The notes under the pieces were generated by a model that was given only the letters and a program-made list of their open reading frames with translations, ran no database searches and was not told where the DNA came from. Made by a program: the position numbers and the translations under genes. From NCBI GenBank assembly GCA_965242965.1, contig OZ251518.1, forward strand, positions 5,376,001 through 5,440,000: a DNA stretch of 64,000 nt. Reading direction: 5' to 3'. Of the stretch, positions 24,720 to 53,793 are shown in pieces (positions within the stretch are counted from its first letter, which is position 1; every line of letters starts with the position of its first letter). This stretch comes from Candidatus Poribacteria bacterium. Lineage in GTDB: Bacteria > Poribacteria > WGA-4E > WGA-3G.

Positions 24720-24852
24720 GGGTGTGCGTCTTCCGAATGCTTGAAACTGCTGTGAATTCGACTGCAGGTTTACCTCGCCCTGGTTGCAGTGCAACCAGGG
24801 CTGCAAGGTGGAACATTTCCTGTAAGATTTCAATATCGTTCACGAGCCTCAC
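24720..24852 (-). pseudogene. Possible truncated partner gene of the AAA ATPase
   Basis: GTGA overlap with the ATPase stop; NDIEILQEM.. start runs directly into the convergent acetamidase gene. Confidence 0.3.
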
Positions 24853-26231: not shown

Positions 26232-26498
26232 GCGGAAACCTCCCTAATTGGCATCGTTTCCAAACCTCCATGTCCAGAGAGGTTTGGCATAATCCGAGGC
26301 GTATTCGGAAAACGCGCCCCGGCTGCGTCTAATAAAACTTATCTTAAATGATACCCAATTTTATCAGAAGAGTCAAATTTATTTTTTCGCGAAAAGCGGC
26401 AAAGATAATCCCACGCCGCGCTTAACGCCGAATCGGCAAGGGAAGCGAGGGATTCGTGGCATCCTCGTATCGCGGGGGTCTGTCCCCCGCGAGGATGT

Positions 26499-27048
26499 TT
26501 AAGACCGCAGCAGCGAGGGATTCGCGGTGAGAATGGAGATGTCCTGCGTTCTGAAATCGCTGTCGTGCGTTATCAGCGTCAATCCGTTGCTTTTGCAGAG
26601 TTCGGTGATGACCTGGTCATTGAAGTCAGCGTTTCCATCTGCGTATTCAGCGAGCAAGATATCCATGTCCAATGTTGCAAATCCGCTTTCAATCCGTGAG
26701 CAGTGGTTCATAATCTATCTGCTTGACATCATTGACAATATCTTGGGCAATTGGTTTGAAATCGGGGCTGTTGCGAAAAGCTTTAAACGTCCTGCGAGGC
26801 GGCGGGCTAAGTTCCCATTCCAGTCTAGCGTATCTGTTGATAAATTCTGAAAGGACGAGAACATCAATGTAAATTCGACTCCCTGCTTTCAAAATGCGGT
26901 TAAGAACGGGCGTGTAGGTGCGCCGCCAATAACCGCGCTGTTTTTGAGGGCCATGCAGGTACATCCAGATATTGGCATCCAGAAGTAGCCGGTCTTGGAC
27001 GGTAAAGTTGTGGTTCTCCACCGCCCTGGTTTTATGGTTCATCGTCAT
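26499..27048 (-). pseudogene. PIN-domain nuclease split by a 4-bp duplication
   Basis: LLLDANIW..SEFINR in ORF 26689..27048 and DFND..LITHDSDF in ORF 26499..26711; removing one ATCT of ATCTATCT (26713-26720) fuses them as KQIMNHCS. Confidence 0.8.
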
Positions 27049-27400
27049 CTTCTCCCATTACCTCGCGATACGCTTCTTCAAATCGCTGCGGGTCTGCAAA
27101 GTAACGTTTGGCGTTGGCAACCACCCGTTCCACCAGCGCAAGATCTTCTTGTTCCGCGTCCTCTACCTTCAACAGCGAACGAATTTGGTTTTCGCCGAAT
27201 GTCCCATACAACTGGCCAATTGCGGCATCGAGGAAAGCCGAGGTCAGTGCTGTGACATTGTGAAATGATAGGGCGACACCCCGGTCTGCCGCCAGTGCGG
27301 CAGCAAGCCGGTCATAGATTTTCTGTCCATCGTCGGAAGCGACGCAGAAGGGACCGCCTACGACTTCATACATGGATATCTTCATATTTTCTTGCATCAT
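27032..27400 (-). CDS. STAS-like (DUF4325) protein
   Basis: TAAGGAG RBS; CVASDDGQKIY..LSFHNV..LTSAFLDAAIGQLY. Confidence 0.75.
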   Translation of the reverse strand: MMQENMKISMYEVVGGPFCVASDDGQKIYDRLAAALAADRGVALSFHNVTALTSAFLDAAIGQLYGTFGENQIRSLLKVEDAEQEDLALVERVVANAKRYFADPQRFEEAYREVMGEDDDEP

Positions 27401-27409
27401 TCTCTCCTT

Positions 27410-27627
27410 AGCTGCAGAGGTGCTTATACCGAACACCTCCACGCTTGTCATCGTACCTCCAGAATGGCCGGCCGATGTTGCAGATTTCGGCGGTTTTGCC
27501 GTTTTAGACGAGTTCAACCTCGCGCTTATCTTCAAACGGTAGGAAGCGATTTTTGTCGGGTAGCGGTTCGTCTGCATCGATGAAACGGAATAACCTCTTG
27601 CCGTTCTTGCTCGGTGAGTTGTGGCAC
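27410..27627 (-). pseudogene. Remnant of a Mod-like DNA methyltransferase (N-terminus, internally deleted)
   Basis: GAGG RBS, GTG; reads MPQLTEQERQEVI / RFIDADEPLPDKNRFLPFEDKREVELV*NGKTAEICNI with a frameshift and a stop at the expected Trp; resemblance from memory. Confidence 0.5.
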
Positions 27628-27658
27628 GGTGTTCCTCGTGTTTTCAGTGAGGTTGTGT

Positions 27659-28150
27659 TCACCGGTGTCGGGAGCGGGCAAATCTCCTGACTGAGAACGG
27701 CATTGTGAAATCTCTTCTACGGGTATCGGAAACGGACAGTCTTTTCTTCCGATTTGCTCTGTCGGTTTCAATAACTTGGACGACAGAGTCGCGAACCTTG
27801 ATGGGACCATTTTCCGCATCAAGGTTGTCCATAGTTCTCGCCGTTTTCTTTAATGTCTCATACTTCGTCACCCAGTTGGGTGGCATGAGAGATCTGGCAA
27901 CTGGACCAAGGTTCATTTGGTACGTTGATGCCACTGAAAATTTTTCTTGAGTGTAGATGACACGCACTCTGACTTTCGGCATCTCAAGCGAACCTAGTTT
28001 TTCGCCGGTATCGGGATCTGTGATGTCTTCACGGACTCCCATTACATCAAAGTGCATGCCGACGGTTACGCCCTCTGCAGTTCCGATATTTAGCGCGATT
28101 TCTCGCGGGCTAAGCACGCGCGCGACTTTGCCGCGAATCGGTTCTGTCAT
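27659..28150 (-). CDS. Hypothetical protein, FlgT-C-terminal-like beta domain
   Basis: GKVARV..IALNIG..GV.VGM.FDV..ITDPDTGEKLG; ATGA overlap with upstream gene. Confidence 0.5.
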   Translation of the reverse strand: MTEPIRGKVARVLSPREIALNIGTAEGVTVGMHFDVMGVREDITDPDTGEKLGSLEMPKVRVRVIYTQEKFSVASTYQMNLGPVARSLMPPNWVTKYETLKKTARTMDNLDAENGPIKVRDSVVQVIETDRANRKKRLSVSDTRRRDFTMPFSVRRFARSRHR

Positions 28151-28662
28151 TGTTTAGCCTCCGTTGTGTCATCATCTTGGGATTTTAGGTTTGGCCATTG
28201 AAGAATGTATCCCGGATTGTCTAGCCCATTCTCCGACCAATCCTCTGGCCAATCGTCCAGCACATCGTCAGGAAAAATATCCTTCCAATCCTCCATTGCG
28301 TCGTCCGCTGAAATTAACTGTCCAGCAACGATTTCTTCAAGCCTAGCTAACGGCACTTGGTAGTCTTCATGAACGTCGGGTTGCTGTGCAGACTCTATTA
28401 CCTCTGCTGCCCGAGAGAGACTGTCATAGAGAGAGTCAAGTCGCCGTAAAGCAGATCGGACGTGCGGCCTGATAATTTCTTTCGCTGCCTCACGTGCCGA
28501 TTGTCTCCCGAAAATGAAAGAGCCAGCGAGACCTGCTGCCAAGGAAATGAATTGCAAAAGGACGTTCTCCAAACTGCTCAAAGTTCTTACAGTTGCTGTG
28601 TACACGAGCATCGCGAATGCTCCAATAGAAATGCTAACAAGCAACCATGCTAATTTTTTCAT
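28147..28662 (-). CDS. Hypothetical two-TM membrane protein with acidic tail
   Basis: Two hydrophobic N-terminal helices, helical middle, D/E/W-rich end. Confidence 0.6.
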   Translation of the reverse strand: MKKLAWLLVSISIGAFAMLVYTATVRTLSSLENVLLQFISLAAGLAGSFIFGRQSAREAAKEIIRPHVRSALRRLDSLYDSLSRAAEVIESAQQPDVHEDYQVPLARLEEIVAGQLISADDAMEDWKDIFPDDVLDDWPEDWSENGLDNPGYILQWPNLKSQDDDTTEAKQ

Positions 28663-29832: not shown

Positions 29833-31038
29833 TTAATCTGAGTATGGATCGGCGGCATCGCGCAGGGCATCCCCTAAAAAGTTGAAGGCGATAACTACAA
29901 CGAGGACCGGCACTGCCGGAAAAATCAGCCACGGATAGTGGAGCAAGACGGTGACGCGCTGTGCCTCTTCCAATAGCACTCCCCAACTCGTCATCGGTGG
30001 CCGGATGCCTAAGCCGAGGAAACTGAGCGAAGTCTCTCCCAAAATCATACCGGGGATGGCGAGGGTAGCGATGACGATGATATGGCTATAACACCCCGGC
30101 AGTAAGTGTTTAGTGATGATGTGCCAATGTCCGGCACCGGCGGCGCGTGCCGCCATCACGAAATCGCTCTCCCGATACGCAAGCACCTTGCCGCGCACCT
30201 GCCTCGCCAATCCACCCCAGCCGATAATCGACAAAATAATCGTGATACCGAAGTAAATCTGGATGCTGCTCCAGCCGGGAGGTAAAGCCGCACCGAGTGC
30301 CATCCACAGCGGAATATTCGGAAACGCCGAGAGGATTTCAATGATGCGCTGGATGAGGTTATCTACCCACCCGCCCCAATAGCCGGAAATCGTGCCGAGG
30401 ATGGAGCCGAAGACGATACTCAAAAATACGCCGACTAAGCCGAGTGTCATTGAGACGCGCCCACCGTAGATCATCCGAGAAAGCAGGTCGCGTCCCATCC
30501 GGTCCGTGCCGAACAGGAACATCGGGCCCTCGGAACTAAACAGATGCCGCCGCCCCTTCGCATCCTTGAAAAAGAGCGTGACAGGATGCCGTTGCTCCAC
30601 ATCTCGCGTAAATTCCAACTCAAGACTTTCCGGATTGCGAACCGACTTGAGTCCGTAGACATACAGCCCTTCGCTGGGCGAAAAGTGCAGGCGTTGCGGC
30701 GGCACATGACGCAGCCGCATGTTAATCTCGTTATAGTGATACGGCGCGAAGAAATCGGCACCGAGCGCGACGATGTAAAAGAGGAGCAGCACCCCACCCG
30801 CGATGAGCCCCATCCGATTCTTGCGAAATCGCTGCCAGATGAGTTGACGATAACTCAAGTGTCCTAATGCTGAAGAGCCCTCGGCATCTTCCGGTGAGCC
30901 CGGGTCATTATCGTAGCGCGGGGGCCTGTCCCCCGCGTTTCCCCTGTCTGCTGGCCCGGTGTTATCGTAGTGCGGGGGCCTGTCCCCCGCGTTTTTCCGG
31001 CCTGCTGTCTCATGAGCGTTTGAATTATCGTTATTCAT
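29833..31038 (-). CDS. Peptide/nickel ABC permease (OppC/DppC-like) with REP-derived N-terminal repeats
   Basis: FGTDRMGRDLLSR, FVMAARAAGA, ETSLSFLGLG..PPMTSWG, FNFLGDALRDAADP; NAGDRPP(H/R)YDN twice. Confidence 0.92.
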   Translation of the reverse strand: MNNDNSNAHETAGRKNAGDRPPHYDNTGPADRGNAGDRPPRYDNDPGSPEDAEGSSALGHLSYRQLIWQRFRKNRMGLIAGGVLLLFYIVALGADFFAPYHYNEINMRLRHVPPQRLHFSPSEGLYVYGLKSVRNPESLELEFTRDVEQRHPVTLFFKDAKGRRHLFSSEGPMFLFGTDRMGRDLLSRMIYGGRVSMTLGLVGVFLSIVFGSILGTISGYWGGWVDNLIQRIIEILSAFPNIPLWMALGAALPPGWSSIQIYFGITIILSIIGWGGLARQVRGKVLAYRESDFVMAARAAGAGHWHIITKHLLPGCYSHIIVIATLAIPGMILGETSLSFLGLGIRPPMTSWGVLLEEAQRVTVLLHYPWLIFPAVPVLVVVIAFNFLGDALRDAADPYSD

Positions 31039-32089: not shown

Positions 32090-34017
32090 CGTCCGTTTTT
32101 ATCTATCCAGCACTGTTCGGGATAGCTCGTTGCGGGGGTGACGATAGCCCAGGGCCCCAAGATGCCGTCGTTTGGCACGTTATGAAAATGGTTCGCGACG
32201 ACGAGCAGCGAAGGCGAACGCGCCGCCGACCCGAGATGAAAAGGACCTTCGTCAATGTGGATGCGCACGGCATCGCGGACGTATTGGTGCCGCTGTTTTT
32301 CATCGGGTTCCCGCTTGATTGCGTCGTATAAATCGAGCAGTTTTTTGAGCGGCCCAGTAGGCGGTTCGCCTTTTTCGCCGCCGGTCTCATACCATTTTCC
32401 CACCTTCGGATGCCAATACTTGGGCAGCGTTGGAAACACCCAGTCAGGATAGGTAAACAGATCCATTTCTGCCTCACCGTGCATGCTAATCGTGAATTTG
32501 CCGAGGGTGCGGCGCAAACTCAACTCTGCGCCCGGCGGCGTGTAGAGCATCGTTTTTAAGCCGAGTGCCTCCCATCCCTCCTGAATAATCAACCCGATGT
32601 CGTTCTCTTGGCTGTTCAGATTGGAGCTCGGCACATCCATCAGCATCTCAATCCGTCTGCCATCGTAACGTAGGCGATAGCCGTCCTTATCGCGCGTGGT
32701 TAACTGCATTTCGTCTAAAAGTCGGTTTCCCGCGGCGATGTCAAAATCGGCATCGGCGCGCTTCCATTCTTCAAACAGCGTCTGTCCATCTTCGTCAGCG
32801 AAGTGCCAGCCTTCTTGGCTCACCGTAGCGGCTTGCGGTTCGAGCAGCCCGCGCCACGCAATCTCGTTGCATTTCTCTCTATCAATGCCGTAGGCGAGTG
32901 CCTTCCGAAACCGCTGATCGCGGATGAGCTGCCGTAACACCGGGTCTGGCGCAGTCCAGTTAATCAGGATGGCTGGCTGCGCGCCTGCCGTGCTTTTCCA
33001 CCGCCGCACGGTATAGCCGCCCTTCTCTTGGCCCTTCAGATAGAGAGCCAAATCTCGTAATTCCATGCCGCGGTATTGGCAATCAATTTCGCCTGCGAGG
33101 ATTTTGAGGACGCGCACCTGCGGTTCCGGCACCAAGCTGGTTTTCACTTTGTCAATGTAAGGCAGCTGCCTTCCTTCCGTGTCCACTACATAATAATACG
33201 GATTGCGTTCCAATTCAACCCGAAAGCCACCCTTTTCATATTTTCTGATGCGCCACGGCCACAGCGTTGGACGTTCGGGGTTTTGGTGCGGGAGATTCTC
33301 CTTCTCGAATTGGATAAAATTTTCATGCGCCGAACCGCTATCGGGGTGAAACTGCATCATGTAGTGCTTTGGGATGTTGTATTGATTGCACCACCAAAAC
33401 CCTGTCGCTAGCCACAGCGGGACGAGCCAATTCGGTCCGGCGAATTTCATCACGATGGTGTAGTCATCGGGTGTTTCAACCTCCATCGGGATGCCGTTCA
33501 CTTTGCACCAGACAGGGGGGCTACGTTTGTATCGTTCGTCAAGGCAGAGTTCATACCAGAAAGCGAACGATTCGGAGGTATAGGGATGCCCGTCAGACCA
33601 GCGGACTCCCTTACGGAGATATAGCGTCAGCACGCTGCCATCTTCGTTGAATTCCCATGATTCGGCGATGCCGGGTTCCAGACCGGATGCATCGAATTTC
33701 CAACGAATGAGCGGCGCGTAACCTGCAGTCATCTTCCATGTCCCGAGCTCTGGGTGCGTATGAAATCGGTGCCAGATGCCGCCGTAGATGCCGGGCTTCT
33801 CGTAGCCATCAAAGTCGGTTTTAGCGACGAGTGGCTTTTCCGGCAATCGTTCGGCGAGGGGAGGCAGTCCGCCATCGGCAACCTTTTTTGCGAGCATGGG
33901 TGCCTCTTTCGCCTCCAGTCCGTTTGGGAAGCTGGAGGTATCTTCGACGCGGTTTTCCGCGCATCCAACGAGCAAAACGAGTAAGGTGAACGTGAAAATC
34001 TGTCGACATATTTTCAT
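32086..34017 (-). CDS. ABC substrate-binding lipoprotein, family 5 (OppA/DppA-like)
   Basis: Lipobox LVGC, EAPMLA..LPPLAERLP, LRKGVRWSDG, ERNPYY, FRKALAYGIDR. Confidence 0.9.
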   Translation of the reverse strand: MKICRQIFTFTLLVLLVGCAENRVEDTSSFPNGLEAKEAPMLAKKVADGGLPPLAERLPEKPLVAKTDFDGYEKPGIYGGIWHRFHTHPELGTWKMTAGYAPLIRWKFDASGLEPGIAESWEFNEDGSVLTLYLRKGVRWSDGHPYTSESFAFWYELCLDERYKRSPPVWCKVNGIPMEVETPDDYTIVMKFAGPNWLVPLWLATGFWWCNQYNIPKHYMMQFHPDSGSAHENFIQFEKENLPHQNPERPTLWPWRIRKYEKGGFRVELERNPYYYVVDTEGRQLPYIDKVKTSLVPEPQVRVLKILAGEIDCQYRGMELRDLALYLKGQEKGGYTVRRWKSTAGAQPAILINWTAPDPVLRQLIRDQRFRKALAYGIDREKCNEIAWRGLLEPQAATVSQEGWHFADEDGQTLFEEWKRADADFDIAAGNRLLDEMQLTTRDKDGYRLRYDGRRIEMLMDVPSSNLNSQENDIGLIIQEGWEALGLKTMLYTPPGAELSLRRTLGKFTISMHGEAEMDLFTYPDWVFPTLPKYWHPKVGKWYETGGEKGEPPTGPLKKLLDLYDAIKREPDEKQRHQYVRDAVRIHIDEGPFHLGSAARSPSLLVVANHFHNVPNDGILGPWAIVTPATSYPEQCWIDKNGR

Positions 34018-34976
34018 TCCGAATATTCCTCCTTTTCGAGTGAGGCGGCGAAGGTATCCAGGTCTGCGCACACGCGTGCGAAGAGTTCGTGGATGTGCTT
34101 GGCATGCGCTTCGGTGAGTTCATAAATCAGTTCTTCACTGTAGATGTTATGAACTTTGTGGCGGAAATCTAGCAAATCTTTTAATTGCGCCGCCGTTTCC
34201 TCGGATATAACGGGCGGCCGCTCCGTGCGGCGTGCCCCCATCTGTTGCAGCAACTCGTTATGCCATTTCTCGCTATTTGGGACATGCCTGTCTACCGCGC
34301 GCGCTATCCTCTCAAAAATCGTTTCTACGCCATCGTAAACTTTAGTGAGTTTCATAGCAATCGATTCCTCTATATATTTGCTATGATTCGGTGCAACTAC
34401 TTTCATGTCATCCAACGCTTCTGCGATACTCACCACAGTTCGCTCAATTTTAGCGCGTTCATCGTTGATGCGCTGGATGAGTCGGCTTCGGTTCATTTCG
34501 TAGTGTGCTCTCTGTTCCGCTGCTCTCGGCGCCACATCGCCGGCAAACGTGTTTTGCTGTGTCCCCCCGACGCGGTTTTCAATAAAAACGGCTTGCCTTT
34601 TCACGCGCTCCCGGAAGAGTCCTTTCGTCTCCTCAAAGGTGACGAAATCGATGTTGAAAGTTGCATCGAAGTAGACGACTTTGCCATACGCGTCCCAATA
34701 GGCTTCGTTAGGCATGCCCCAGGCGACAATATCAATATCCGAGAACGCCGAAAACGCCTCCCTCTCTGCGAGGGAGCCGAACACGGCGACGCGCGTTGCG
34801 CCGAAGTCTTGATAGAGCATGTCTGCAATTTGATGTGCCGTTTTCCATGCGCGTTGGAGCAATGCTTCATCGACATGCCGCGTTTTCCACTGCTGCTCTA
34901 AATGCCGGCGGCAGTCGGCGAGTTCCTCCGGCGACATTGTATGCGGGGGTGGATAGGTTGCTGTGACTTTGCGCAT
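34014..34976 (-). CDS. MNT-HEPN single-chain fusion, copy 3 in transcription order
   Basis: FGS..SDIDI nucleotidyltransferase motif; WH..LL.QM..RPPV..FRHKVHNIY HepT-like motif; ATGA overlap with oppA. Confidence 0.85.
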   Translation of the reverse strand: MRKVTATYPPPHTMSPEELADCRRHLEQQWKTRHVDEALLQRAWKTAHQIADMLYQDFGATRVAVFGSLAEREAFSAFSDIDIVAWGMPNEAYWDAYGKVVYFDATFNIDFVTFEETKGLFRERVKRQAVFIENRVGGTQQNTFAGDVAPRAAEQRAHYEMNRSRLIQRINDERAKIERTVVSIAEALDDMKVVAPNHSKYIEESIAMKLTKVYDGVETIFERIARAVDRHVPNSEKWHNELLQQMGARRTERPPVISEETAAQLKDLLDFRHKVHNIYSEELIYELTEAHAKHIHELFARVCADLDTFAASLEKEEYSE

Positions 34977-34977
34977 T

Positions 34978-35943
34978 TTAAGCGTCCTCCTGCTGTGTAG
35001 CGAGTGCAGCGGCGAAGGTATCCAGGTCTGCGCATACGCGCGCGAAGAGTTCGTGGATTTTCATCACGTGCACCTTGGTGTAGTCGTAAACCAATTTGTG
35101 CCCGTAAATGTGAGTCACCTTGTGGCGAAAATTCAAGAGTTCTTCAAGTAACCTCGCCGTTTCGTGGGAGATGACAGGCGGCCGCCCTGCGCGCCGTTCT
35201 GCCATTTGTGCGAGGAGGCTTTTATGCCATTCCGCGTCACTAGGTAGAGCCCCATCTACCTCCTGGGCAACGCGTTCAAAAATGTTCTTGATGCCATTGT
35301 AGACCTCGGCAAGATCATAGGCAATCACCTTTTCAAATGCGCGTCTGTATTTCGGGGCAACCTCCTCCAGGCCTTCCAATTCTGTTGCGATTTCAGCGAG
35401 GGTTGATTCTATTTCGACGCATTCATCGGCGATGCGTTGGATAAGTTTGCGCCGATTCATTTCATAAGTTCCTCCCTGTTCGGCGGGATTCACCGGCTGT
35501 TGAAGAGCGGCGGCTGGGTATTTGTAGAGGCCAGCCTCTATTGTTTCAATACCGATGGCTTGCTGCTGTATCCGTTGGCGGAAAAGTCCCTTCGTCGCCT
35601 CAAAATTGACCAGGTCGATCTGGAACTCCGGACTAAAGCCGGTTGTTTTCCCGAGGGCATCACAATACTCGGCATCCGAAAGTCCCCACACGGCGATGTC
35701 AATATCTGACCGCGGTGTAAACCAGTCCCTCTCGGCGAGGGAACCGAACACGGCTACCTGCGTTGCGCCGAAGTCTTGATAAAGCATGGCTGCAATCTGA
35801 TGTGCCGTTTTCCATGCGCGTTGGAGCAATGCTTCATCGACATGCCGCGTGGCCCACTGCTGTTCTAAATGCTGGCGGCAGGCGGCGAGTTCCTCCGGCG
35901 ACATTGTATGCGAGGGTGGATAGGTTGCTGTGACTTTACGCAT
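34978..35943 (-). CDS. MNT-HEPN single-chain fusion, copy 2 (intact R-x4-H-x-Y)
   Basis: Start matches paralogue MRKVTATYPP; SDIDIAV; FRHKVTHIY. Confidence 0.85.
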   Translation of the reverse strand: MRKVTATYPPSHTMSPEELAACRQHLEQQWATRHVDEALLQRAWKTAHQIAAMLYQDFGATQVAVFGSLAERDWFTPRSDIDIAVWGLSDAEYCDALGKTTGFSPEFQIDLVNFEATKGLFRQRIQQQAIGIETIEAGLYKYPAAALQQPVNPAEQGGTYEMNRRKLIQRIADECVEIESTLAEIATELEGLEEVAPKYRRAFEKVIAYDLAEVYNGIKNIFERVAQEVDGALPSDAEWHKSLLAQMAERRAGRPPVISHETARLLEELLNFRHKVTHIYGHKLVYDYTKVHVMKIHELFARVCADLDTFAAALATQQEDA

Positions 35944-35944
35944 T

Positions 35945-36907
35945 TTAAACTCCCTCCTGCTGCGTGGCGAGTGCAGCGGCGAAGGTATCCAGGTCTGCGC
36001 ACACGCGTGCGAAGAGTTCGTGGATGTGCTTGGCATGTTCCTCGGTGAGTGCGTGAACCAGTTCCTCTCCATAGCTCTTGCGAACCTTGTGGCGGAACTC
36101 TAAGAGTTCTCTTAAGAGTGCTGTTGTCTCTAGGGAGAGGACAGGCGGCCGCCCTGCGCGCCGTTCTGTCATTTGAGCGAGGAGGTTTTTGTGCCACTCA
36201 GCGCCGCTTGGGACATGCGCGTCCACTTCACGAGCGATGCGTTCAAAAATGTTCTCTATCCCCTCGTAGACCTCGGCAAGATCCGTGGCCATCGCGATTT
36301 CAATGAATTCTCCGTATTTAGTGTCAGCTTCTTCATGCATCGCTACTGCTCTGTCGATCCTTGCAATCGTCCGCTCAATTTTTGCGCGTTCATCGTTGAT
36401 GCGCTGGATGAGTCGGCTTCGGTTCATTTCGTAGCATCCTCCCGGTGCCGCCGCTCTCGGCGGCACATCGCCGGCAAACGTGTTTTGCGGTGTCTGCTCG
36501 GCGCGGTTTTCAATAAAAACGGCTTGCCTTTGCACGCGCTCTCGGAAAAGTCCTTTTGTATTTTCAAAAGCGACGAAATCGATGTTGAAAGTTGCATCGA
36601 AGTAGACGACTTTGCCATACGCGTCCCAATAGGCTTCGTTAGGCATGCCCCAGGCGACAATATCGATATCCGAGAACGCCGAAAACGCCTCCCTCTCGGC
36701 GAGGGAGCCGAACACGGCGACGCGCGTTGCGCCGAAGTCTTGATAGAGCATGGCTGCAATCTGCTGGGCTGTTTTCCATGCGCGTTGGAGCAATGCTTCA
36801 TCGACATGCCGTGTTGCCCACTGCTGCGCCAAGTGCCGGCGGCAGGCGGCGAGTTCTTCCGGCGACATCGTATGCGGTGGCGGATAGGTTGCTGTGACTT
36901 TGCGCAT
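35945..36907 (-). CDS. MNT-HEPN single-chain fusion, copy 1
   Basis: SDIDIVA; FRHKVRKSY (catalytic His replaced by Lys). Confidence 0.85.
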   Translation of the reverse strand: MRKVTATYPPPHTMSPEELAACRRHLAQQWATRHVDEALLQRAWKTAQQIAAMLYQDFGATRVAVFGSLAEREAFSAFSDIDIVAWGMPNEAYWDAYGKVVYFDATFNIDFVAFENTKGLFRERVQRQAVFIENRAEQTPQNTFAGDVPPRAAAPGGCYEMNRSRLIQRINDERAKIERTIARIDRAVAMHEEADTKYGEFIEIAMATDLAEVYEGIENIFERIAREVDAHVPSGAEWHKNLLAQMTERRAGRPPVLSLETTALLRELLEFRHKVRKSYGEELVHALTEEHAKHIHELFARVCADLDTFAAALATQQEGV

Positions 36908-36948
36908 GATGCACCTCTGGTTGTTTGAACGCGGAGACAGGCCCCGCG

Positions 36949-38628
36949 CTACGTCACCTCAAGTTGGAGTTGCGTTTCTTCGACTTCTCGCACGGCTTTT
37001 GGAACTTCGCTTCTGGCAGAACTTGGCATCTGTGGTTGCCGATTTTCCATCAAATCGCTGACACTCCAGAATTGGAATGCGGGCCATGTTTGGCCATCTA
37101 ACGGATGCACGAATGTCCGCTGTCCCACCTGTTCCACCCGCGCTTTCGCCTCGGGTGTCAACACGTCGGCATAGTCCTTGTGCCGGTGTCCATGCAGGCT
37201 GATGAAAATGCCCATCGTTGCTTCTTCCGCCGACATCACGCCGAGGAATTCATCTATCTCACGCCGGCCGATGCGCTTGCTCGTCTTGACTTGGACGAGG
37301 ATGAGCCCCTCTTTATCCTGTCCTTTTTCGTCGACACCGAGGTAAAGCGTGCCCCATCCATCGATGCCGCCATCACGGCTGAGGCTCTGACTCGGCTGCA
37401 ACAGGAGACGGCCCTGTGCATCCCGAATCTGACCGAGGATGAAATTCTGGAAGTCATACCGTGCCTGATGTTTGTTTCGCCGGTTATTTTTGCTCTTCTC
37501 AGCAAGTGCTTGGATTTCCTGTGCCTCAAGTTCCGCGAGTTGGACGGCTTCCTCATAAGAGGTAGGCGTGTTGTAGAGGGAGAACCCGTTTCCGAGCCGA
37601 AGTTCTTCATCGGCGAATGCATCCTGCAGGCGTTCCTTGACGACGTTAATCGCGCCGTAGCTGATGTCCATGCCGAGCCAGCGGCGATTGAGTTTCTGGG
37701 CGGCATGGAGCGTCGTGCCGCAGCCACAGAACGGATCGAGAATCACATCACCTTCATTTGAGGAGGTTTTGATGAGCCGTTCTAGCAACGCGAGGGGTTT
37801 CTGTGTCGGATACCCCAGCCGTTCTTTCGCCTGCGAATTCAGCACCGGTACTTCAAAGACATCAAAAGCCGGCGTGCCCTCAGCTTTTCTATCAACAACC
37901 CGGCTGTATCGCGACATGTCAATCTCGCCTTTCGCGACAGCGGCATCAAATACCTCGCGGTCCTCCACGATAATCTGCCGCCGCCTCACGCCTTTATCAT
38001 TGTAAGTGTTCGTGCTATACCCCCGTGCAGAGGCTTCGGTTCTCTTCCTCGCCACATACTGGGTATTGAATACCAGATTCTGGGTTTTGGAATAGAATAG
38101 CAAGATATCGTGCATCCGCTGGTACTGGTTTGAAGCGGCCGCCCACCGCCGATAAAACCAGACAATCTCATTCCGGAAGTTTTCTTCCCCGAAGATTGCG
38201 TCCATCATCACTTTGAGATAATGACTCGCCGTCGCATCGCAGTGGAGATAAACGCTGCCTGTCGGTTTCAACACGCGATGGATTTCAATGAGTCGTTCTG
38301 CCATGTAGAAGCAGTAAGCCGTCATCGGTTTTTCACCGAGGAGGAGATATACGCCGCGCGCCATGTTTGCAATCTCCGCGCGTGGCGAGGCGAGGAGCCG
38401 TTCGTAAGCGCGCTGCGCGGCTGCATCCCAGTGCCACATATCGTGGAATGCCATCGCCGGTGGCTTTTGCTGTTTACCCTTTTCCTTGCGTTGAAAGGGC
38501 CGGTTATAGTTTGCATTGGAGTTGAAAGGCGGATCGAGATAGCATCCGTCCACCGTTTCATCTGCAATATATTTTCGGAGATTGTAGAGACAATCACCGT
38601 AAAAAAGCGCGTTACTGAGTGTCGTCAT
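36949..38628 (-). CDS. Beta-class amino DNA methyltransferase fused to Mrr-like endonuclease domain, paralogue A
   Basis: YLDPPFNS, GYPTQKP, LDPFCGCGTT; C-terminal DGGIDG..LVQVK. Confidence 0.88.
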   Translation of the reverse strand: MTTLSNALFYGDCLYNLRKYIADETVDGCYLDPPFNSNANYNRPFQRKEKGKQQKPPAMAFHDMWHWDAAAQRAYERLLASPRAEIANMARGVYLLLGEKPMTAYCFYMAERLIEIHRVLKPTGSVYLHCDATASHYLKVMMDAIFGEENFRNEIVWFYRRWAAASNQYQRMHDILLFYSKTQNLVFNTQYVARKRTEASARGYSTNTYNDKGVRRRQIIVEDREVFDAAVAKGEIDMSRYSRVVDRKAEGTPAFDVFEVPVLNSQAKERLGYPTQKPLALLERLIKTSSNEGDVILDPFCGCGTTLHAAQKLNRRWLGMDISYGAINVVKERLQDAFADEELRLGNGFSLYNTPTSYEEAVQLAELEAQEIQALAEKSKNNRRNKHQARYDFQNFILGQIRDAQGRLLLQPSQSLSRDGGIDGWGTLYLGVDEKGQDKEGLILVQVKTSKRIGRREIDEFLGVMSAEEATMGIFISLHGHRHKDYADVLTPEAKARVEQVGQRTFVHPLDGQTWPAFQFWSVSDLMENRQPQMPSSARSEVPKAVREVEETQLQLEVT

Positions 38629-40217
38629 TTCAGCACCTCCGCAACGGCCAATTCCAGCTGCATCTCTTCGACTTCGCGAACCGCCTTTGGAACTTCGCTT
38701 CTGGCAGTGCTTGGCATCTGTGGTTGCCGATTTTCCATCAAATCACTGACGCTCCAGAATTGGAATGTGGGCCATGCCTGGCCATCTAACGGATGCACGA
38801 ACGTCCGTTTTCCTACCTGTTCCACTCGCGCTTTTGCCTCGGGTGTCAACACATCGGCATAGTCCTTGTGCCGGTGTCCATGGAGGCTGATGAAGATACC
38901 CATCGCCGCTTCTTCCGCCGACATCACACCGAGGAATTCGTCTATCTCGCGCCGGCCGATGCGCTTGCTCGTCTTGACTTGGACGAGGATGAGCCCCTCT
39001 TTGTCCTTCCCTTTTTCGTCAACGCCGAGATAGAGGGTGCCCCATCCATCGATGCCGCCATCGCGACTCAGACTCTGACTCGGTTGCAAGAGGAGTCTGC
39101 CTTGCGCGTCCCGAATCTGGCCGAGGATGAAGTTCTGGAAGTCATACCGTGCCTGATGCTTGCTGCGGCCGTGCTGATTCTTCGCTTGAACCTGCTGGAC
39201 TTCCTCAGCCTCCCGTTGTGCTAAGGCCACCACCTGTTCGTAAGAATCAGGCGCGTTGTAGGTGGCAAAGCGGAGTTCTTCGTCTGCGAAAGCGTCTTGC
39301 AGGCGTTCTTTGACGACGTTAATCGCGCCGTAGCTGATGTCCATACCCAGCCAGCGGCGGTTCAGTTTCTGTGCGGCGTGGAGCGTCGTGCCACAGCCAC
39401 AGAACGGATCGAGAATGAGATCTCCCTCATTGGAACACGCTTTGACGATGCGCTCAAGGAGTGCCAGCGGTTTCTGGGTGGGATACCCCAATTTTTCGGT
39501 AGAGAAACTTTTGATCATAATTGAGTCAAGTCTATCCCCGGGATGACAATTCCAAGTGTCTTCTATCGGGATACCCTTGCCTGTCGGTTTCGACCCGTCT
39601 CGTCGGACATAATCCGGCGGATACGGCAAATACTCCTTGTTAAACACTTTTTGTGCTGCGGGAGTTTTCGTATAGTAAAGCAACGTATCGTGATTGCGGA
39701 TCCAACCGCGCTTCTGCGTTTTAAACCCGCTCACCCAGCCGATTCGCCAGATAACTTCATTCCGGAAGTTTTCTGTCCCGAAAATCGCGTCTAGCATTAC
39801 CTTGAGATAGTGACTCGCCGTGGCATCGCAATGGAGATAGACGCTGCCTGTCGGTTTCAACACGCGGTGAATCTCGATGAGCCGTTCTGCCATGTAGAAG
39901 CAGTAAGCTGTCATCGGTTTTTCGCCGAGGAGGAGATACACGCCGCGCGCCATGTTTGCAATCTCGGCACGTGGCGAGGCGAGGAGTCGTTCGTAAGCAC
40001 GCTGCGCGGCTTCATCCCAGTGCCACATATCGTGGAATGCCATCGCCGGTGGTTTCTTTTGTTTCCCCTTTTCCTTGCGTTGAAAAGGCCGGTTGTAGTT
40101 TGCATTGGAGTTGAAAGGCGGATCGAGATAACATCCATCCACCGTTTCATCTGCAATATATTTTCGGAGATTGTAGAGACAATCGCCGTAAAAGAGGGCA
40201 TTTTCAAGGTTTTTCAT
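38625..40217 (-). CDS. Beta-class amino DNA methyltransferase fused to Mrr-like endonuclease domain, paralogue B
   Basis: Near-identical to A outside the TRD and one linker; ATG overlaps the oppF stop (TGATG). Confidence 0.88.
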   Translation of the reverse strand: MKNLENALFYGDCLYNLRKYIADETVDGCYLDPPFNSNANYNRPFQRKEKGKQKKPPAMAFHDMWHWDEAAQRAYERLLASPRAEIANMARGVYLLLGEKPMTAYCFYMAERLIEIHRVLKPTGSVYLHCDATASHYLKVMLDAIFGTENFRNEVIWRIGWVSGFKTQKRGWIRNHDTLLYYTKTPAAQKVFNKEYLPYPPDYVRRDGSKPTGKGIPIEDTWNCHPGDRLDSIMIKSFSTEKLGYPTQKPLALLERIVKACSNEGDLILDPFCGCGTTLHAAQKLNRRWLGMDISYGAINVVKERLQDAFADEELRFATYNAPDSYEQVVALAQREAEEVQQVQAKNQHGRSKHQARYDFQNFILGQIRDAQGRLLLQPSQSLSRDGGIDGWGTLYLGVDEKGKDKEGLILVQVKTSKRIGRREIDEFLGVMSAEEAAMGIFISLHGHRHKDYADVLTPEAKARVEQVGKRTFVHPLDGQAWPTFQFWSVSDLMENRQPQMPSTARSEVPKAVREVEEMQLELAVAEVLK

Positions 40218-41224: not shown

Positions 41225-41249
41225 GGTTTTTGTTAGTTTTGCCGGACAG

Positions 41250-41479
41250 GCGAGGGACAGGCCCTCGCCCTACGATACCCGCGTGGTGTTTGGCGAGGGA
41301 TAGTCCCTCGCCATGCGTTTTGCTGTCAGGGCGCATCACCTCTGTAGGTCAGGATCGCCAGATCCTGACCCGTTTGTGATCAGGCGATCACAAACTACAG
41401 CGGTGGGCCCGATGCCTGCCGGTATTCGCCCACCCTCCAAGGCGGGATAAATACCGAAACGGAGATATGAAACACCCTC
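41250..41479. repeat. REP-like cluster plus solo TIR end between the two ABC ATPase genes
   Basis: ggcgagggacaggccctcgccctac, doublet 41342-41400; 41440-41479 is the reverse complement of the left end at 19021. Confidence 0.75.
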
Positions 41480-41491
41480 AGTAATTTGGTT

Positions 41492-42597: not shown

Positions 42598-42693
42598 TGA
42601 GCAGGATTGAGCAGGATTTACAGGATTAGCAAGATTGAGCAGGATTTACAAGATTGAGCAGGATTTACAGGATTCACACGATTTACCAGGATT
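42598..42693. repeat. Tandem 9-10 bp CAGGATT-core repeats
   Basis: gagcaggatt/tacaggatt/agcaagatt repeated about 10 times. Confidence 0.85.
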
Positions 42694-42740: not shown

Positions 42741-43091
42741 GAGGATGTTTCATAAATCCGTGTCGGAGAGCCCTCCCGGTCTCGATGCAAGCGATGTCCC
42801 TTTCATCGTAGGGCGAGGGCCTGTCCCTCGCCATCGTTCATGCCCGTGCACCCCAACGCTCGCGGGGGCCTGTCCCCCGCGAGCTCCATCGTCACGATGT
42901 GTGTTTCCCCACTGTAGTTTGTGATCGCCTGATCACAAACAGGGCAGGATCAGGCGATCCTGAACTACAGAGCCTGGCGCGCGAACGCATAGCGAGGGAC
43001 AGGCCCTCGCCCTACGTGAAGGGGCGGCGTTTTTTTATCGTAGCGCGGGGGACAGGCCCCCGCGACGTTGAACGATTTAGGAAACACCCTC
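42741..43091. mobile_element. TIR-bounded non-autonomous composite element carrying REP-like repeats
   Basis: gaggatgtttcataaatc ... gatttaggaaacaccctc; interior GTAG hairpins and doublet 42912-42970. Confidence 0.55.
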
Positions 43092-45405: not shown

Positions 45406-48400
45406 CTATTTACTAAACTTCAACTCATCCGCAACCTTGCGGAGTGTATCGTTTATCCGCTCCAACACTTCTGGTGATGGTTGTTCTCCTCTGGCGGTAA
45501 TTTGGATGTAGAATTCAAAGTCAATCTCCGGCGCGATTTCGGCTAGTTCACCGATTGTTTCAGCCAAATCCTGAATATCAGTTTCGGTGAGGGGTGATGC
45601 CGCCTGCATTCCCCATGGCTCATCCAACAAGCCAGGGGGTTCCGGCAGAGGTGGCTGCACAACCGAAGTTTGTGGAACTTGCAGACCTACTTGATCTGCA
45701 GCATTAGCATCGTGAGACCACGTGGAAACTCCACTAGTAATCTCAAAGAGATTGTCACTCAACGCCTCATTGATAGCATAAACAACCAATGTCCACGGAA
45801 TTGGTGAACCTTTGCGCTGTGCCAATGCCTGCATCACTTTGCCGATAGACGAGGTGTCTCCCTCCCACGCACCTGGCAAAGCCTCTCGGCTGAGTTCCGA
45901 ACCGCGAATAGGTTGAAGAGGTTTGACTAATTCCAATTCGTCGGTAAGTTCTGCGACCGGAATAGCCTCCCGCAAATATGCCTTATCGCCGCTGCGCGCC
46001 ATGAGGAATCCTGAACTGACTGTCTCCTTGACTGCCTCCAAAAGCACAGTATCAGAAGCGAGTTTCGGGACATCGTCTCTGCTGAAAAATTCGCGAATTG
46101 CACGCACTGTTATCGGGACATTTTCGTTCTGCCATAAGTCGGGCAATTGACCCGGGGGCAGCAGTTCCGGGCTAAGTTCGTAGAGTTCGGCATGCTCAAT
46201 CGGCACGATTTCTAACCCTTTTGTCCGGAAATCTTCGTCTGTGGGTGCTTCACGCCAATAGGTGCGATGCGTTCCATCCGGCCGGGGTGCGCGCAGGACA
46301 ATCCGGCCCTCCGCAACACTGCGCCGTAGCGAGTCAATAAACACCTGTCTGTTCAGCATCCGCGGCATCCGCGGCAGACTGGCAAACATGCCATAGAGTC
46401 CTTGAACCGGTTTTGCGGTTTCATCGGCTCCCCACAAGTCATAATAACTCTCGCGGGTGAGCAAATCCGGATCAAGTAGTGTTGTCAGGAGTCTGTCTTC
46501 GTCTTCCAAAAATGCCTTCACGCGTTCAAAAGGTACGGCTGTCCCGCGGGGCAGTGAACGCGCCGCAAGTTTGCCATCCTCGTCAACTGCAATGAGCACG
46601 CTATAAATCGATGTGACAGAGTCTCTGATGCCGGTTCCATCCTCTCGCTTGCGCTGTCGGAGGAGTGTTTTCTGCGCATCACTCAAATGCTCTATCTCGT
46701 CCCCGTTTTCAATATTCTCCCATCCGAGGATTTTACGAATGCGCTGACGCAATCCTGCTAACTGCGAGCGTTCCGGCGCGAGCACGATAACGCTGTTCCG
46801 ATAAGTTCTCTCAAAGAACACTTTGAGAGACGAAGGGATGTCTGTCCCCGGAACCGCCGCGTATTCGGGGGCGACGATGACAAAGTGGAGTTCGGGGGTA
46901 TCAGAGACATCGGCGGGTGAATTGGGAAATACGTGAACCGCCACCTTATCCCTATTCTGGCCAAGTTTCACGTCTTTTATCCGCTTCACCAAATTGTCGG
47001 TAATCTGCTCTTCCGTCACTCTTGCCATCGCGCGGGCATGCATGTTCGTAAGATTTGCTACCGTGCCGAGTGCCCAGGTATCTTCCTCTTCTTTCAGGAA
47101 CCATGAGCGTTTTCGCCACTCCGAGAGCCCTTGCTCTACTGACATCGAGTCGAGCTCGGCGTGTGCCAGCAACAGATAGAGTTCTGCCGTCTCGGCTTTC
47201 TTCCCTTGCGGTTGGGAATGCAAGAAGGTAGCTAGCACCGCCGCCTCAATTTCTCGGTTTTTGAGTTGCGGCAGTTTTTCTTGGACGGCCCGGGCGCGCT
47301 CAAGTTCCCCGGTGAGAATCGGTGTCCACCGATTGCTCTCTTCACACGCTTCAATGAGTTCTTGCACGGCTTTTGACAATTCGCCAGCGGTGCCGAGCAA
47401 CACACCCGGCCCGACAAAAGCGGATGCATCTCTCCCATCAGTCTCTCGCAAGGCGGTTGCAAACGTGCGAAGCATCCCACGCGTCCTTTGGAAGCGACTG
47501 AGTTGCGTCCATTTTTGATAGAAAACCTCAATGAAATCCGGGTGAAACGGGTAAGATTTTAAGAGACGTTGGAAGGCATCAGGAGTTGTCAGTGAATCGC
47601 GTATCGGTAATCTCCGCATTGCACCGACGAGTCTCCCGATGATGGCGCGATGTATCTTGTCATCCCCGACATATTCAAACAACCGCCGACGCAGCAATTC
47701 TGAAATATCGTCATGCGAGAGGGGTTCGACCGTTTCTTCCACGCGCCGAAAGACATGCTCCATCGCGGTTAAGACTTGCACCCCGGTCGGATCATTTGCG
47801 GCACTATCTGAGCTGATGAGGCTTGCAACGAGGGCGGCACGTTCAACCTTGTCAACCGCCTGTGTCAACATTTGGAAGAAATCCTGCAGGGTTCCCAATC
47901 GGCTTGCATCCATGTTGACTGCACTGCGCAGATAGAGTAGTGCCTCGTCAATCAAGATGAGTGTGGCAAGTCCATCCGATTGCGGCATGTTGAGGAGCTC
48001 AACCAGAATGGGTTCAGCTGGCGGGGTCCAACCCGCTTCATGCTCGGAAACCTTTTTCAGGCCTTCATCACCGGCGAGTTGATACGCCAGCGCACCCCAC
48101 GGCGTTTGCACCTGTCTCTCCTCACCTGCCGGGCTCTGCACCGAAAGTCCCAGTTTCACGTCAAATTTGTCAAAAGGTAACAGGGCGACTCGTGCCTTGG
48201 GGAGGCGGTTTAAGCCGCTGAAGCCGATGAATTCCTGCACGGTTGGATACTTTTCCAGCGTTTCTCCACCCTCTGCTAGATGCAACAAGGCGATGAGCGC
48301 GTGCGTCTTGCCGCCCCCGTAAGCGACTTGGACGCGGATAACCGGCTTACCGTCGGGGCTGCCAGACAACCGCAGCAACACGTCTCGCACCAATGTCTTG

Positions 48401-48567: not shown

Positions 48568-48585
48568 CTGGTTACTTCTCCTCTG

Positions 48586-48897
48586 TTATGTCTTAATGAC
48601 GGGTTGGACCAAGGGGATCATGTCCCGGAAGACAGAATCTCGGATTTCCTCGCGGAGTGCAGGACGCGATACCACATCCACTTTGCATCCAAACTTGTCC
48701 TCCAAGAAGTGTTTCAAACCGATAGCATCAAGCAGATCGGCACTGTCATCGAAATCTACCAACAGATCAAAATCGCTGTCCTTGTGGAAATCCCCACGGG
48801 CATACGAACCGAAGATGCCCTTCACCTCGGCTTTGTAGCGTTGCCGAATCCGGTCTTTCTCAGATGCGAGTGCTTTCTGAATGTCCGTAATTCTCAT
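48586..48897 (-). CDS. Minimal nucleotidyltransferase (MntA-like), no adjacent HEPN
   Basis: GIFGSYARGD..SDFDLLV (GSx10DxD), LED.FGCKVDVV; ATGA overlap with upstream gene. Confidence 0.88.
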   Translation of the reverse strand: MRITDIQKALASEKDRIRQRYKAEVKGIFGSYARGDFHKDSDFDLLVDFDDSADLLDAIGLKHFLEDKFGCKVDVVSRPALREEIRDSVFRDMIPLVQPVIKT

Positions 48898-49178: not shown

Positions 49179-49189
49179 CTATTCTCCTC

Positions 49190-49628: not shown

Positions 49629-49633
49629 ATGTT

Positions 49634-49662
49634 ATTATACCAAAATTCCACAAAAATGTCAA
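49634..49662 (-). promoter_or_regulatory. Consensus sigma70 promoter
   Basis: TTGACA-17bp-TATAAT with TG extension. Confidence 0.75.
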
Positions 49663-49670
49663 AATTAAAA

Positions 49671-49805: not shown

Positions 49806-49834
49806 CATCAAGACTGGGAGGGCGCGCCTACCCA

Positions 49835-53790: not shown

Positions 53791-53793
53791 CGC

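Follow-up and report, generated by a model that had tools for sequence, protein, structure and literature searches.

FhepTA (SO_1440), from prophage CP4So of Shewanella oneidensis, is a toxin-antitoxin in which a minimal nucleotidyltransferase (MNT) and a HEPN domain are fused in one chain. As described by Yao et al. (NAR 2026; PMC13000451), the MNT domain oligo-AMPylates the Tyr beside RxxxxH and keeps the HEPN domain from dimerising, HEPN by itself is toxic, and the genes lie in prophages or mobile islands. Tyr nucleotidylation had been predicted by Anantharaman et al. in 2013 (PMC3710099). We describe here three fused MNT-HEPN genes and the two genes beside them, each coding for a DNA methyltransferase joined to an Mrr-type nuclease domain (MTase-Mrr), in a window of 64,000 nucleotides (the whole stretch of DNA that was analysed; contig OZ251518.1, positions 5,376,001 to 5,440,000, assembly GCA_965242965.1) from a Candidatus Poribacteria bacterium, a sponge symbiont. 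An earlier note had read these five genes as a single defence cassette spliced into a peptide ABC transporter operon. Comparison with related loci suggests that the region probably holds two unrelated modules of the Poribacteria chromosome and not one cassette.

Window features were called from sequence, and co-transcription is presumed from the layout. Eleven genes, oppD through SDR, lie on the minus strand. Five of them make up a complete Opp/Dpp-type importer set: two oligo_HPY ATPases, one of oppD type (42511-41492; Pfam ABC_tran and oligo_HPY, with matches to OppD/DppD models) and one of oppF type (41224-40217; ABC_tran and oligo_HPY), a family-5 substrate-binding lipoprotein of oppA type (34017-32086; SBP_bac_5), and two permeases, of oppB type (32089-31031) and oppC type (31038-29833), both with BPD_transp_1. 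An SDR oxidoreductase (29806-28979; Pfam SDR) follows as the final gene of the conserved backbone operon. Between oppF and oppA stand MTase-Mrr B (40217-38625, 530 residues; N6_N4_Mtase E 5e-41, C-terminal Mrr_cat E 1e-7), MTase-Mrr A (38628-36949, 559 residues; N6_N4_Mtase E 4e-45, C-terminal Mrr_cat E 6e-8) and the three MNT-HEPN copies, numbered 1 (36907-35945), 2 (35943-34978) and 3 (34976-34014). The copies, of 320-321 residues each, combine the Pfam domains Polbeta and HepT-like_2 (E 1e-25 to 2e-24) and carry the HEPN motifs FRHKVRKSY, FRHKVTHIY and FRHKVHNIY, respectively.

The junctions are very tight. The oppF stop and the MTase-Mrr B start share TGATG, with an AAGGAG site upstream of that start; B overlaps A in ATGA; each MNT-HEPN copy follows the one before as TAAaATG, with 1 nt between genes; and copy 3 overlaps oppA in ATGA. 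Gene order, the one-strand layout, these junctions and the domain identities (with which Pfam agrees) are as the earlier note had read them, and the overlapping or near-abutting junctions likewise support its suggestion of a tight, probably translational, coupling to the transporter genes. It had also seen no integrase or insertion sequence (IS), and neither integrase nor transposase domains were found in the 40 window open reading frames (ORFs) scanned, eight short ORFs of the 47 called being left out. No target-site duplication is evident at the MTase insertion when the oppF 3' end is read against the spacer between MTase-Mrr A and copy 1.

The claim that the five genes were spliced in together is contradicted by the related genomes. 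One genome per species was searched by a profile scan with the MNT-HEPN family alignment; the best 80 of the 247 MNT-HEPN-encoding stretches found were kept, giving 74 loci (71 titled Poribacteria, three 'uncultured bacterium'), against which the eleven window proteins were run by tblastn, with the junctions then measured. The order oppD-oppF-[MNT-HEPN x1-3]-SDR was found in 24 of the 74, from 24 separate assemblies ("class A"), and tblastn detected neither MTase-Mrr nor oppABC between oppD and SDR in any of them. Identity to the window is 71-78% for oppD (median 74%) and 78-83% for oppF (median 81%), both present in 24/24 loci, 48-54% for MNT-HEPN and 81-88% for SDR (median 85%; 23/24 loci). 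The array consists of one copy in 12 loci, two in 9 and three in 3, as counted by tblastn (strict stop-to-stop ORF counting gives too few copies). The junction between oppF and the first copy is -4 nt (an ATGA overlap) in 13 loci and +2 nt in 5, that between copies is exactly +1 nt in 14 of 15, as in the window, and in 19 of 23 SDR follows the array after 5-15 nt. Flanking genes common to the window and class A include an ECF sigma factor (21/24), formamidase (14), an HtrA-like protease (10), a tetrapyrrole methylase (TP_methylase; 8), a 3-hydroxyacyl-CoA dehydrogenase (3HCDH; 8) and an uncharacterised protein of ~230 aa (235 aa). The only class-A exceptions with regard to MTase-Mrr are two distant Mrr-less methylases, of 31-34% identity and on the other strand (L024, L027).

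Since the class-A loci hold the array with the window's junction pattern and without MTase-Mrr or oppABC, the MNT-HEPN array can be taken for an old resident of this operon. Judged by this synteny, the array is ancestral in the oppDF...SDR operon, and in the window only the MTase-Mrr pair is a lineage-specific part of the supposed cassette. Nor is the five-gene opp set the conserved unit, oppABC being absent within 10 kb of oppDF in the 24 related loci; among the loci compared, oppABC appears between array and SDR only in the window lineage and in its close relative AGPOR5. In the latter (L005; oppA 96% identical) the order MNT-HEPN-oppA-oppB-oppC is the same, on a contig that begins inside the array, and the orthologue of copy 3, 75% identical to it, is sited upstream of oppA there too. 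The window genes without counterpart in the 24 class-A loci are the MTase-Mrr pair, oppABC, the block 24849-28662, the gene at 17563-18960 and the Hma genes; thus the backbone appears to have received several separate insertions, mostly of defence genes.

Some irregular arrays were also seen among the relatives. In L022 (9510-10942, 11409-14423) a 162-aa oppF fragment, consisting of the oligo_HPY end only, and an MNT-HEPN copy precede a full oppD-oppF-MNT-HEPN set, as if the stretch joining oppF to MNT-HEPN had been duplicated in part. Early stops break the first array copy in L012 (3568-3807) and the third in L031 (11890-12123), so that arrays also decay; a further early stop is possible, and not confirmed, 3' of the MNT-HEPN copy of L029, where a 1525-nt gap precedes SDR.

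The earlier note had further supposed that methylases and HEPN genes might act as one combined system and had proposed their co-occurrence elsewhere as a check. With linkage defined as an MTase-Mrr match (E <=1e-8, >=40% coverage) within 10 kb of an MNT-HEPN gene, they were found together in 1/74 loci (L035). The commonest MNT-HEPN neighbours within 4 kb are instead DUF6785/6784 (39 of the 74 loci), VWA_CoxE (39), a pyruvate-dehydrogenase-type E1 (E1_dh; 36) and Zn-ADH (36), followed by an SDR-like gene (34), a squalene-hopene-cyclase-like gene (33) and SRAP (30), while defence or mobile neighbours are sporadic (Uma2 in 7 loci, MazF in 3, GmrSD, Cas6 and HNH in 1 each, and IS elements). These counts cover 592 ORFs in 110 clusters, with 96 representatives scanned and 13 more otherwise identified, and with L014:7465-7890 left out. 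Seen from the other side, full-length MTase-Mrr homologues occur on eight plasmid records; in the two whose surroundings were read, H7 and H10, the gene is solitary, its neighbours being plasmid-maintenance or unrelated genes with no MNT or HEPN gene among them.

The single case of linkage deserves a closer description. The L035 MTase-Mrr gene, 85% identical to the window's, lies 25 nt 3' of E1_dh, and 3.3 kb further downstream, on its own strand, comes an MNT-HEPN pair. The site after E1_dh is the slot that holds MNT-HEPN in ~35 other genomes (e.g. L006), and no decayed MNT-HEPN remnant was found in the 1.1-kb gap after the L035 gene (best tblastn E 0.39). Both visible contexts of the window's MTase clade are therefore the 5' edge of an MNT-HEPN slot, with n=2 and with L035 itself found via MNT-HEPN; we do not count this as evidence for a combined system.

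Of particular interest are the fused MNT-HEPN proteins themselves. A search returned 788 homologue matches, the nearest named ones from Candidatus Poribacteria. The G-S, D-x-D and third-Asp motifs of the nucleotidyltransferase (NTase) domain, here FGSLAE, SDIDI and IDL/IDF, occur in every window copy and hardly vary within the family, SDIDI being found in 261 of the 271 members covering that site. The family HEPN motif reads F-R-H-K-V-x-N-I-Y; among 306 aligned members, 272 of which cover the motif, Arg is kept in 269/272, His at R+1 in 260/272 and Tyr at R+7 in 264/271. The canonical His position (R+5) is occupied in these 272 by Asn in 212 (~78%), His in 26, Tyr in 17, Lys in 11 and Arg in 5. 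In the window it is Lys in copy 1, His in copy 2, the sole one with a full Rx4HxY, and Asn in copy 3, which carries a His one residue before it; the acceptor-position Tyr (RxxxxHxY) is present in all three. The earlier note had counted three HEPN RNases; on these motifs copy 2 may still be one, and copies 1 and 3 are probably RNase-dead. Outside Poribacteria the nearest relatives (35-38% identity) are encoded on plasmids of cyanobacteria as split gene pairs, in which a 124-aa NTase and a 160-aa HEPN protein with the motif FRHVVRHVY overlap by 4 nt, next to an AAA ATPase, Uma2 and a Dnd-associated gene. These split relatives keep the His, and its loss in the fused proteins would therefore be derived.

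An AlphaFold2 (AF2) model of copy 2 (pLDDT 74) shows two domains joined by a disordered linker of ~25 residues, with pLDDT <50 at 136-162. In Foldseek the separate domains match MntA (TMt 0.53-0.74) and HepT (TMt 0.63), and the top matches of the whole chain are ANT(4'), AadA and AAD(9), at a TM of 0.25-0.32 and a root-mean-square deviation (rmsd) of ~10 A. Sequence searches of the PDB gave nothing significant with copy 2, nor with the family profile, for which the best match was HI0073 (E 0.12). The NCBIfam MntA model matches copy 2 with E 2e-6 and 27 bits, under its cut-off of 60; PADLOC gives weak PDC-S09 matches on the MNT part; and the ANT/KNTase Pfam family has no match in the copies.

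The family is fast-evolving yet, judging from substitution rates, under purifying selection. Between the window and L005, copy 3 shows a non-synonymous divergence (dN) of 0.148 and a synonymous divergence (dS) of 0.59, as against 0.021 and 0.39 for oppA, so that MNT-HEPN changes ~7x faster than oppA at non-synonymous sites. In a tree of HEPN domains from class-A arrays the copies fall into position-specific clades across species (first, middle His-type with FRHVFAHLY, and last Asn-type); the MNT domains have evolved in concert within each genome. The dS between window copies 1 and 3 is 0.18 in the MNT core and >3 in the HEPN core. At least three unrelated contexts hold MNT-HEPN genes, with as many as 4 copies in tandem.

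The MTase-Mrr architecture is very common, with >=8000 homologues at E 1e-3; most of the 120 listed have both PF01555 and PF04471, and the nearest named ones again come from Candidatus Poribacteria. Genes A and B are 82% identical overall and near-identical outside residues ~155-243 and a linker at ~317-352. In beta-class methyltransferases the recognition region lies between a DPPF-type N-terminal block and an FCGCGTT-type block; the class is inferred for MTase-Mrr from its domain order and from PDB matches to RsrI, CcrM, MboIIA and EcoP15I Mod. The target-recognition region of B belongs to an 82-residue class common to 6/26 aligned homologues, that of A to a different, 110-residue class, and across 28 clade members residues ~158-268 form 5 such classes between scaffold flanks at least 85-100% conserved. 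The note's description of diversified methylase-nuclease paralogues is thus well founded, the scaffold being near-identical and the target-recognition regions different. In the conserved parts of A and B dS is ~0.5-1.2 and dN/dS 0.03-0.07 (0.04 for the whole C-terminal domain), with the recognition region saturated; from these scaffold values both genes would be old and maintained.

The DPPF and DPFCGCGTT motifs of the methyltransferase domain are invariant in 28/28 clade members, as is DGGIDG...VQVK of the Mrr domain, which we take to correspond to the D...QxK core of Mrr nucleases. The Mrr_cat scores (32.6 and 33.2 bits) exceed the cut-off of 21, but of the profile only positions 31-88 are matched. 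Mrr_cat is replaced by an HNH nuclease in one homologue, P0053 (51% identity). A PDB sequence search with the C-terminal 183 residues of MTase-Mrr A gave nothing significant, and an AF2 model of that protein from a 28-sequence alignment is too poor to use (mean pLDDT 49.6, pTM 0.40). PADLOC yields generic MTase_II/III matches only for MTase-Mrr, and no named multi-gene system for it or for MNT-HEPN; a listing-level literature search for MTase and Mrr_cat fusions turned up no characterised member of this architecture. We infer that the two MTase-Mrr proteins are single-polypeptide restriction-modification (R-M) enzymes with two specificities, in which nuclease activity is not assured.

These data bear on several explanations of the locus. 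If the five genes were one mobile defence cassette, in which MNT-HEPN RNases form an abortive-infection back-up to the methylase-nucleases and the opp operon stabilises the whole, their contiguity and tight spacing on one strand would be accounted for; both gene types come from conflict-system-linked families, HEPN genes are described as frequent in R-M operons in one survey (PMC3710099), and in L035 an 85%-identical MTase-Mrr again has an MNT-HEPN pair downstream of it, in the same orientation. We regard this as very improbable and as largely refuted already by synteny: 24/74 loci have the array between oppF and SDR with no MTase-Mrr, the association within 10 kb is confined to that one locus, the usual MNT-HEPN neighbours are housekeeping genes (DUF6785, VWA_CoxE, E1_dh), the plasmid MTase-Mrr genes H7 and H10 have no MNT or HEPN gene beside them, two of three copies lack the RNase His, and the 41-nt spacer between MTase-Mrr A and copy 1 interrupts the series of overlapping junctions. 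Of the interpretation given in the earlier note, then, the domains, the coupling and the paralogue diversification stand, and neither one cassette, nor one combined system, nor a set of three RNases is borne out. A different possibility is that the MNT-HEPN proteins are no toxins at all but domesticated two-domain nucleotidyltransferases like ANT(4')/AadA or GlnE, in which the HEPN-derived domain binds a protein or a small molecule (of the Opp transporter or SDR) that the NTase adenylylates. Their stable place in housekeeping operons across >=24 species would suit such a role, as would the loss of the canonical His in ~90% of members with invariant NTase residues, the top full-length Foldseek matches, and the statement of the 2013 survey that MNT-fused HEPN domains are as a rule without catalytic residues and represent a domesticated toxin-antitoxin (PMC3710099). 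We think it unlikely, as the ANT matches are of low TM and high rmsd with no ANT or KNTase Pfam match behind them, and the Arg, His +1 and Tyr +7 of the HepT motif, needless for pure substrate binding, are kept in 96-99%. The three or more unrelated contexts, the tandem arrays of up to 4 copies and an evolution ~7x faster than that of neighbours resemble a conflict or addiction gene more than a pathway enzyme, and a subset including copy 2 retains the full RHxxxHxY of the split plasmid homologues.

The MTase-Mrr proteins, for their part, might be orphan regulatory or epigenetic methyltransferases whose Mrr-like domain is dead and serves in DNA binding or dimerisation. Public annotations of the homologues are mostly 'DNA methyltransferase', and the partial Mrr_cat match and the apparent replacement of the first-helix acidic residue (DFQ) would agree with this, as would matches of distant homologues to NA-iREase1; the invariance of DGGIDG...VQVK in 28/28 clade members, the dN/dS of 0.04 in the C-terminal domain, an HNH-for-Mrr_cat swap that is sensible only if a nuclease is wanted, and 5 recognition classes with tandem paralogues, a pattern typical of restriction specificity, make it quite unlikely. 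Some of the same facts, and others, weigh against the reading we prefer, of two unrelated modules with a toxin-antitoxin-derived resident and a restriction-type arrival. In the Mrr domain the first helix reads DFQ, with the acidic residue not evident and the Pfam match beginning at profile position 31, and NA-iREase1, which distant homologues also match, is an 'inactive REase' model. The canonical HEPN His is missing in most family members, which weakens a toxin reading of copies 1 and 3; no HepT, MntA or ANT protein of solved structure matches MNT-HEPN significantly in sequence; Anantharaman et al. describe MNT-fused HEPN domains as typically inactive (PMC3710099); and MNT-HEPN sits in conserved chromosomal slots (oppF/SDR in 24 loci, after E1_dh beside DUF6785 in ~35) and tandem arrays, unlike FhepTA, which is reported from prophages or islands. 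The placement of MTase-Mrr in L035 leaves room for some link or a shared insertion preference. Sampling enters as well: the loci are the best 80 of 247 stretches, the contexts compared are those of relatives other than the closest (MTase-Mrr 78-98% and MNT-HEPN 60-93% identical), a search seeded with MNT-HEPN cannot show empty oppF-SDR junctions or give the fraction of Poribacteria that have them, and oppABC may be either a gain in the window lineage or a loss elsewhere.

The two-module reading may be set out as follows, starting from what was observed (gene content, junctions, synteny, motif states and selection), with every biochemical activity, like co-transcription, being predicted. A backbone conserved across Poribacteria would consist of ECF sigma, the 235-aa protein, oppD, oppF, one to three fused MNT-HEPN genes and SDR, each MNT-HEPN gene presumably being translationally coupled to the gene before it. 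The best reading of these genes, by analogy, is a toxin-antitoxin-derived, self-AMPylating module. As in FhepTA, the NTase domain would use ATP to AMPylate the Tyr of R-x6-Y in its own or a sister HEPN domain, and this would hold a dimerisation-dependent RNase off while ATP is plentiful; copies 1 and 3 would probably be RNase-dead AMPylation modules, either regulators or domesticated enzymes. Two tandem MTase-Mrr genes would have been inserted, in the window lineage, exactly between oppF and the array. Each is predicted to encode a single chain with an N6/N4 methyltransferase of beta class, a target-recognition region in its middle and, at the C-terminus, a PD-(D/E)xK nuclease of Mrr type. Because the scaffold is shared and the recognition regions differ, two different target sequences are expected, which the pair should methylate and presumably restrict, acting independently of the MNT-HEPN genes.

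A bolder extension, to which we give little credence, is that these are phylum-specific, vertically inherited MNT-HEPN paralogues wired by translational coupling into Poribacteria housekeeping operons (after oppF, after E1_dh, before VWA_CoxE), their arrays forming a hetero-oligomeric, ATP-sensing RNase switch. One RNase-competent copy (RHxxxHxY) would then be combined with His-less copies (RHxxxNxY) that retain the adenylyltransferase and the acceptor Tyr, and a domesticated toxin-antitoxin would make RNA decay or growth arrest depend on the cell's energy or nutrient status. The 5' edges of the slots may in addition be preferred landing sites or functional partners of MTase-Mrr, the two cases seen being the oppF slot of the window and the E1_dh slot of L035.

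Tight packing and overlapping stop and start codons are insufficient to establish one system, and it is comparative synteny that parts the old resident from the recent arrival. The resident is the more interesting object: a family of fused proteins resembling type VII toxin-antitoxins, which seems to have expanded in a single phylum of sponge symbionts, is present as tandem arrays of old paralogues at fixed operon positions, and is for the most part without the canonical RNase His while retaining the AMPylation machinery. This is how a toxin-antitoxin module might look in the course of domestication, and it would offer a natural test case, in an unculturable host, for the regulation and role of fused MNT-HEPN proteins, which were first characterised in 2026. 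The MTase-Mrr pair, of widespread architecture, is a clean case of specificity diversification by recognition-region swap.

The promoter that the earlier note had placed upstream of oppD is present as a sigma-70-like candidate (42590-42562, minus strand; TTGACA-17-TAAAAT), an 11/12 consensus match with the joint best score on its strand in the scanned region upstream of oppD, consensus being all that it was scored on. Candidate internal promoters within the five genes reach 9-of-12 matches at most, and their number (16, against 9.6 +/- 3.6 expected) is at chance level. Directly upstream of the candidate -35 hexamer, at 42602-42693, AATCCTG-type units recur every 9-10 nt, about one helical turn; they might serve as an array of sites for a regulator or as an UP-like element.

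The oppD-oppF spacer (41225-41491, minus strand; 267 nt) resembles a miniature inverted-repeat transposable element (MITE) or repetitive extragenic palindromic (REP) element and is strongly structured (-126.4 kcal/mol, z -8.1). Relatives do not have it, their oppD and oppF genes overlapping or lying end to end (they are contiguous in L001). One arm, 41340-41403 (64 nt), is 92% complementary to a copy upstream of oppD at 42909-42972, and a second inverted pair, 41249-41276 and 42805-42832 (28 nt), matches at 100%; oppD and its candidate promoter are thereby flanked on both sides by inverted copies of a composite MITE-like element. A related 'TGAGGATGTTTCATAAATC' motif was also found 3' of the L035 MTase-Mrr gene. 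The Rfam scan of the whole window returned 0 families at gathering score, and the structured spacer is therefore not a known RNA family. The 41-nt spacer between MTase-Mrr A and copy 1 (36908-36948, minus strand) holds a degenerate REP-like hairpin (-21.3 kcal/mol, z -1.0, no better than shuffles) and a GAGGTG ribosome-binding site before copy 1. A GC-rich REP-like palindrome (GCGRGGGCCTGTCCCYCGC) has 79 matches over both strands, against 0.31 expected, with intergenic clustering, for example at 601-1274, 7796-8228, 15196-15770, 41250-41311, 42813-43063, 49270-49602, 52773-53004 and 58375-58536. Two such palindromes lie at 30918-30990, in the annotated 5' end of the long oppC ORF, where they are translated as a repeated GDRPP(H/R)YDN peptide; from this sequence the true oppC start is probably downstream of the annotated one, giving an oppB-oppC spacer.

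Several other window genes have defence-related matches. An Hma trio (45406-57069), which the 24 related loci lack in their syntenic flanks, comprises on the minus strand an HmaC-like AAA+/DUF499 protein (45406-48567; PADLOC E 6e-99), an HmaB-like DUF1156 methylase (49835-52822; E 1e-137) and an HmaA-like SNF2 helicase with NOV_C (53794-57069; E 7e-191). The block 24849-28662 (minus strand) lies in the interval from SDR to the HtrA-like gene, which in relatives is empty or holds formamidase alone, and encodes a 460-aa AAA_15/AAA_21 ATPase (PADLOC PDC-M47A E 1e-140, PD-T4-4_A E 7e-114), followed 3' by a DUF4325 (STAS-like) protein (27032-27577) and three small ORFs without family. The 465-aa product of 17563-18960 (minus strand) has SLFN/AlbA_2 and HATPase_c_4 domains and matches the first 441/1121 positions of the PADLOC 'pAgo' model (E 3e-146), and would thus be a stand-alone Schlafen-ATPase module without the Argonaute part; SLFN-pAgo fusions are reportedly the subject of a 2026 preprint. 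At 62032-63684 (minus strand) lies a 550-aa N6_N4_Mtase protein matching a Type III methyltransferase (PADLOC E 2e-152), any Res partner of which would be beyond or near the window end. The plus-strand gene 8618-15172 encodes a 2184-aa protein with fibronectin-III, cadherin and lamin-tail domains; eukaryote-like repeat proteins are often noted in sponge symbionts, whose genomes are also said to be rich in R-M and toxin-antitoxin genes.

Among known R-M enzymes, MTase-Mrr is most like the Type IIG/IIC-like ones in having methyltransferase, target-recognition region and nuclease in one chain and in the change of specificity by region swapping. Characterised Type IIG enzymes such as MmeI and BpuSI have an N-terminal nuclease and a gamma-class methyltransferase; in MTase-Mrr the nuclease is C-terminal and of Mrr type, and the core appears to be beta-class, like that of EcoP15I Mod, matching both Type II and Type III MTase models of PADLOC. 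From Type III Mod it differs in having no helicase/Res partner. The MNT-HEPN proteins share with ANT(4')/KNTase and AadA a Pol-beta NTase and a HEPN-related helical domain, which is reflected in the full-length Foldseek matches; ANT enzymes differ in the low overall similarity (TM 0.25-0.32), in the want of any Pfam or sequence match, and in being without the R...Y HepT motif conserved in the Poribacteria proteins.

The type VII HepT/MntA systems (PDB 5yep, 6m6v, 7ae6), which are reportedly two-gene toxin-antitoxins described by Yao et al. in 2020, resemble the Poribacteria proteins in domain families, in the order of MNT before HEPN, in the RxxxxHxY of copy 2 and in the structure of each domain (MntA TMt 0.53-0.74, HepT TMt 0.63). 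They differ in that the Poribacteria proteins are fused, have no significant sequence match to them and mostly lack the catalytic His. With FhepTA, as described (PMC13000451), the family shares the NTase motifs and the Arg...Tyr motif, including the Tyr that is oligo-AMPylated there, and also the existence of close split two-gene relatives. This comparison is one of descriptions, and among the loci kept the Poribacteria family is found almost only in that phylum (71/74 loci). The Poribacteria proteins are longer (~320 aa with an extra N-terminal helical segment, against 276 aa), their linker is of ~25 disordered residues in copy 2 as opposed to 3-5 hydrophobic ones, and their HEPN part is Pfam HepT-like_2, with the canonical His replaced by Asn in ~78%. 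The family thus fits between the FhepTA picture and that of Anantharaman et al., having the FhepTA-like plan and Tyr and being at the same time mostly His-less, with a long linker and fixed slots in the chromosome.

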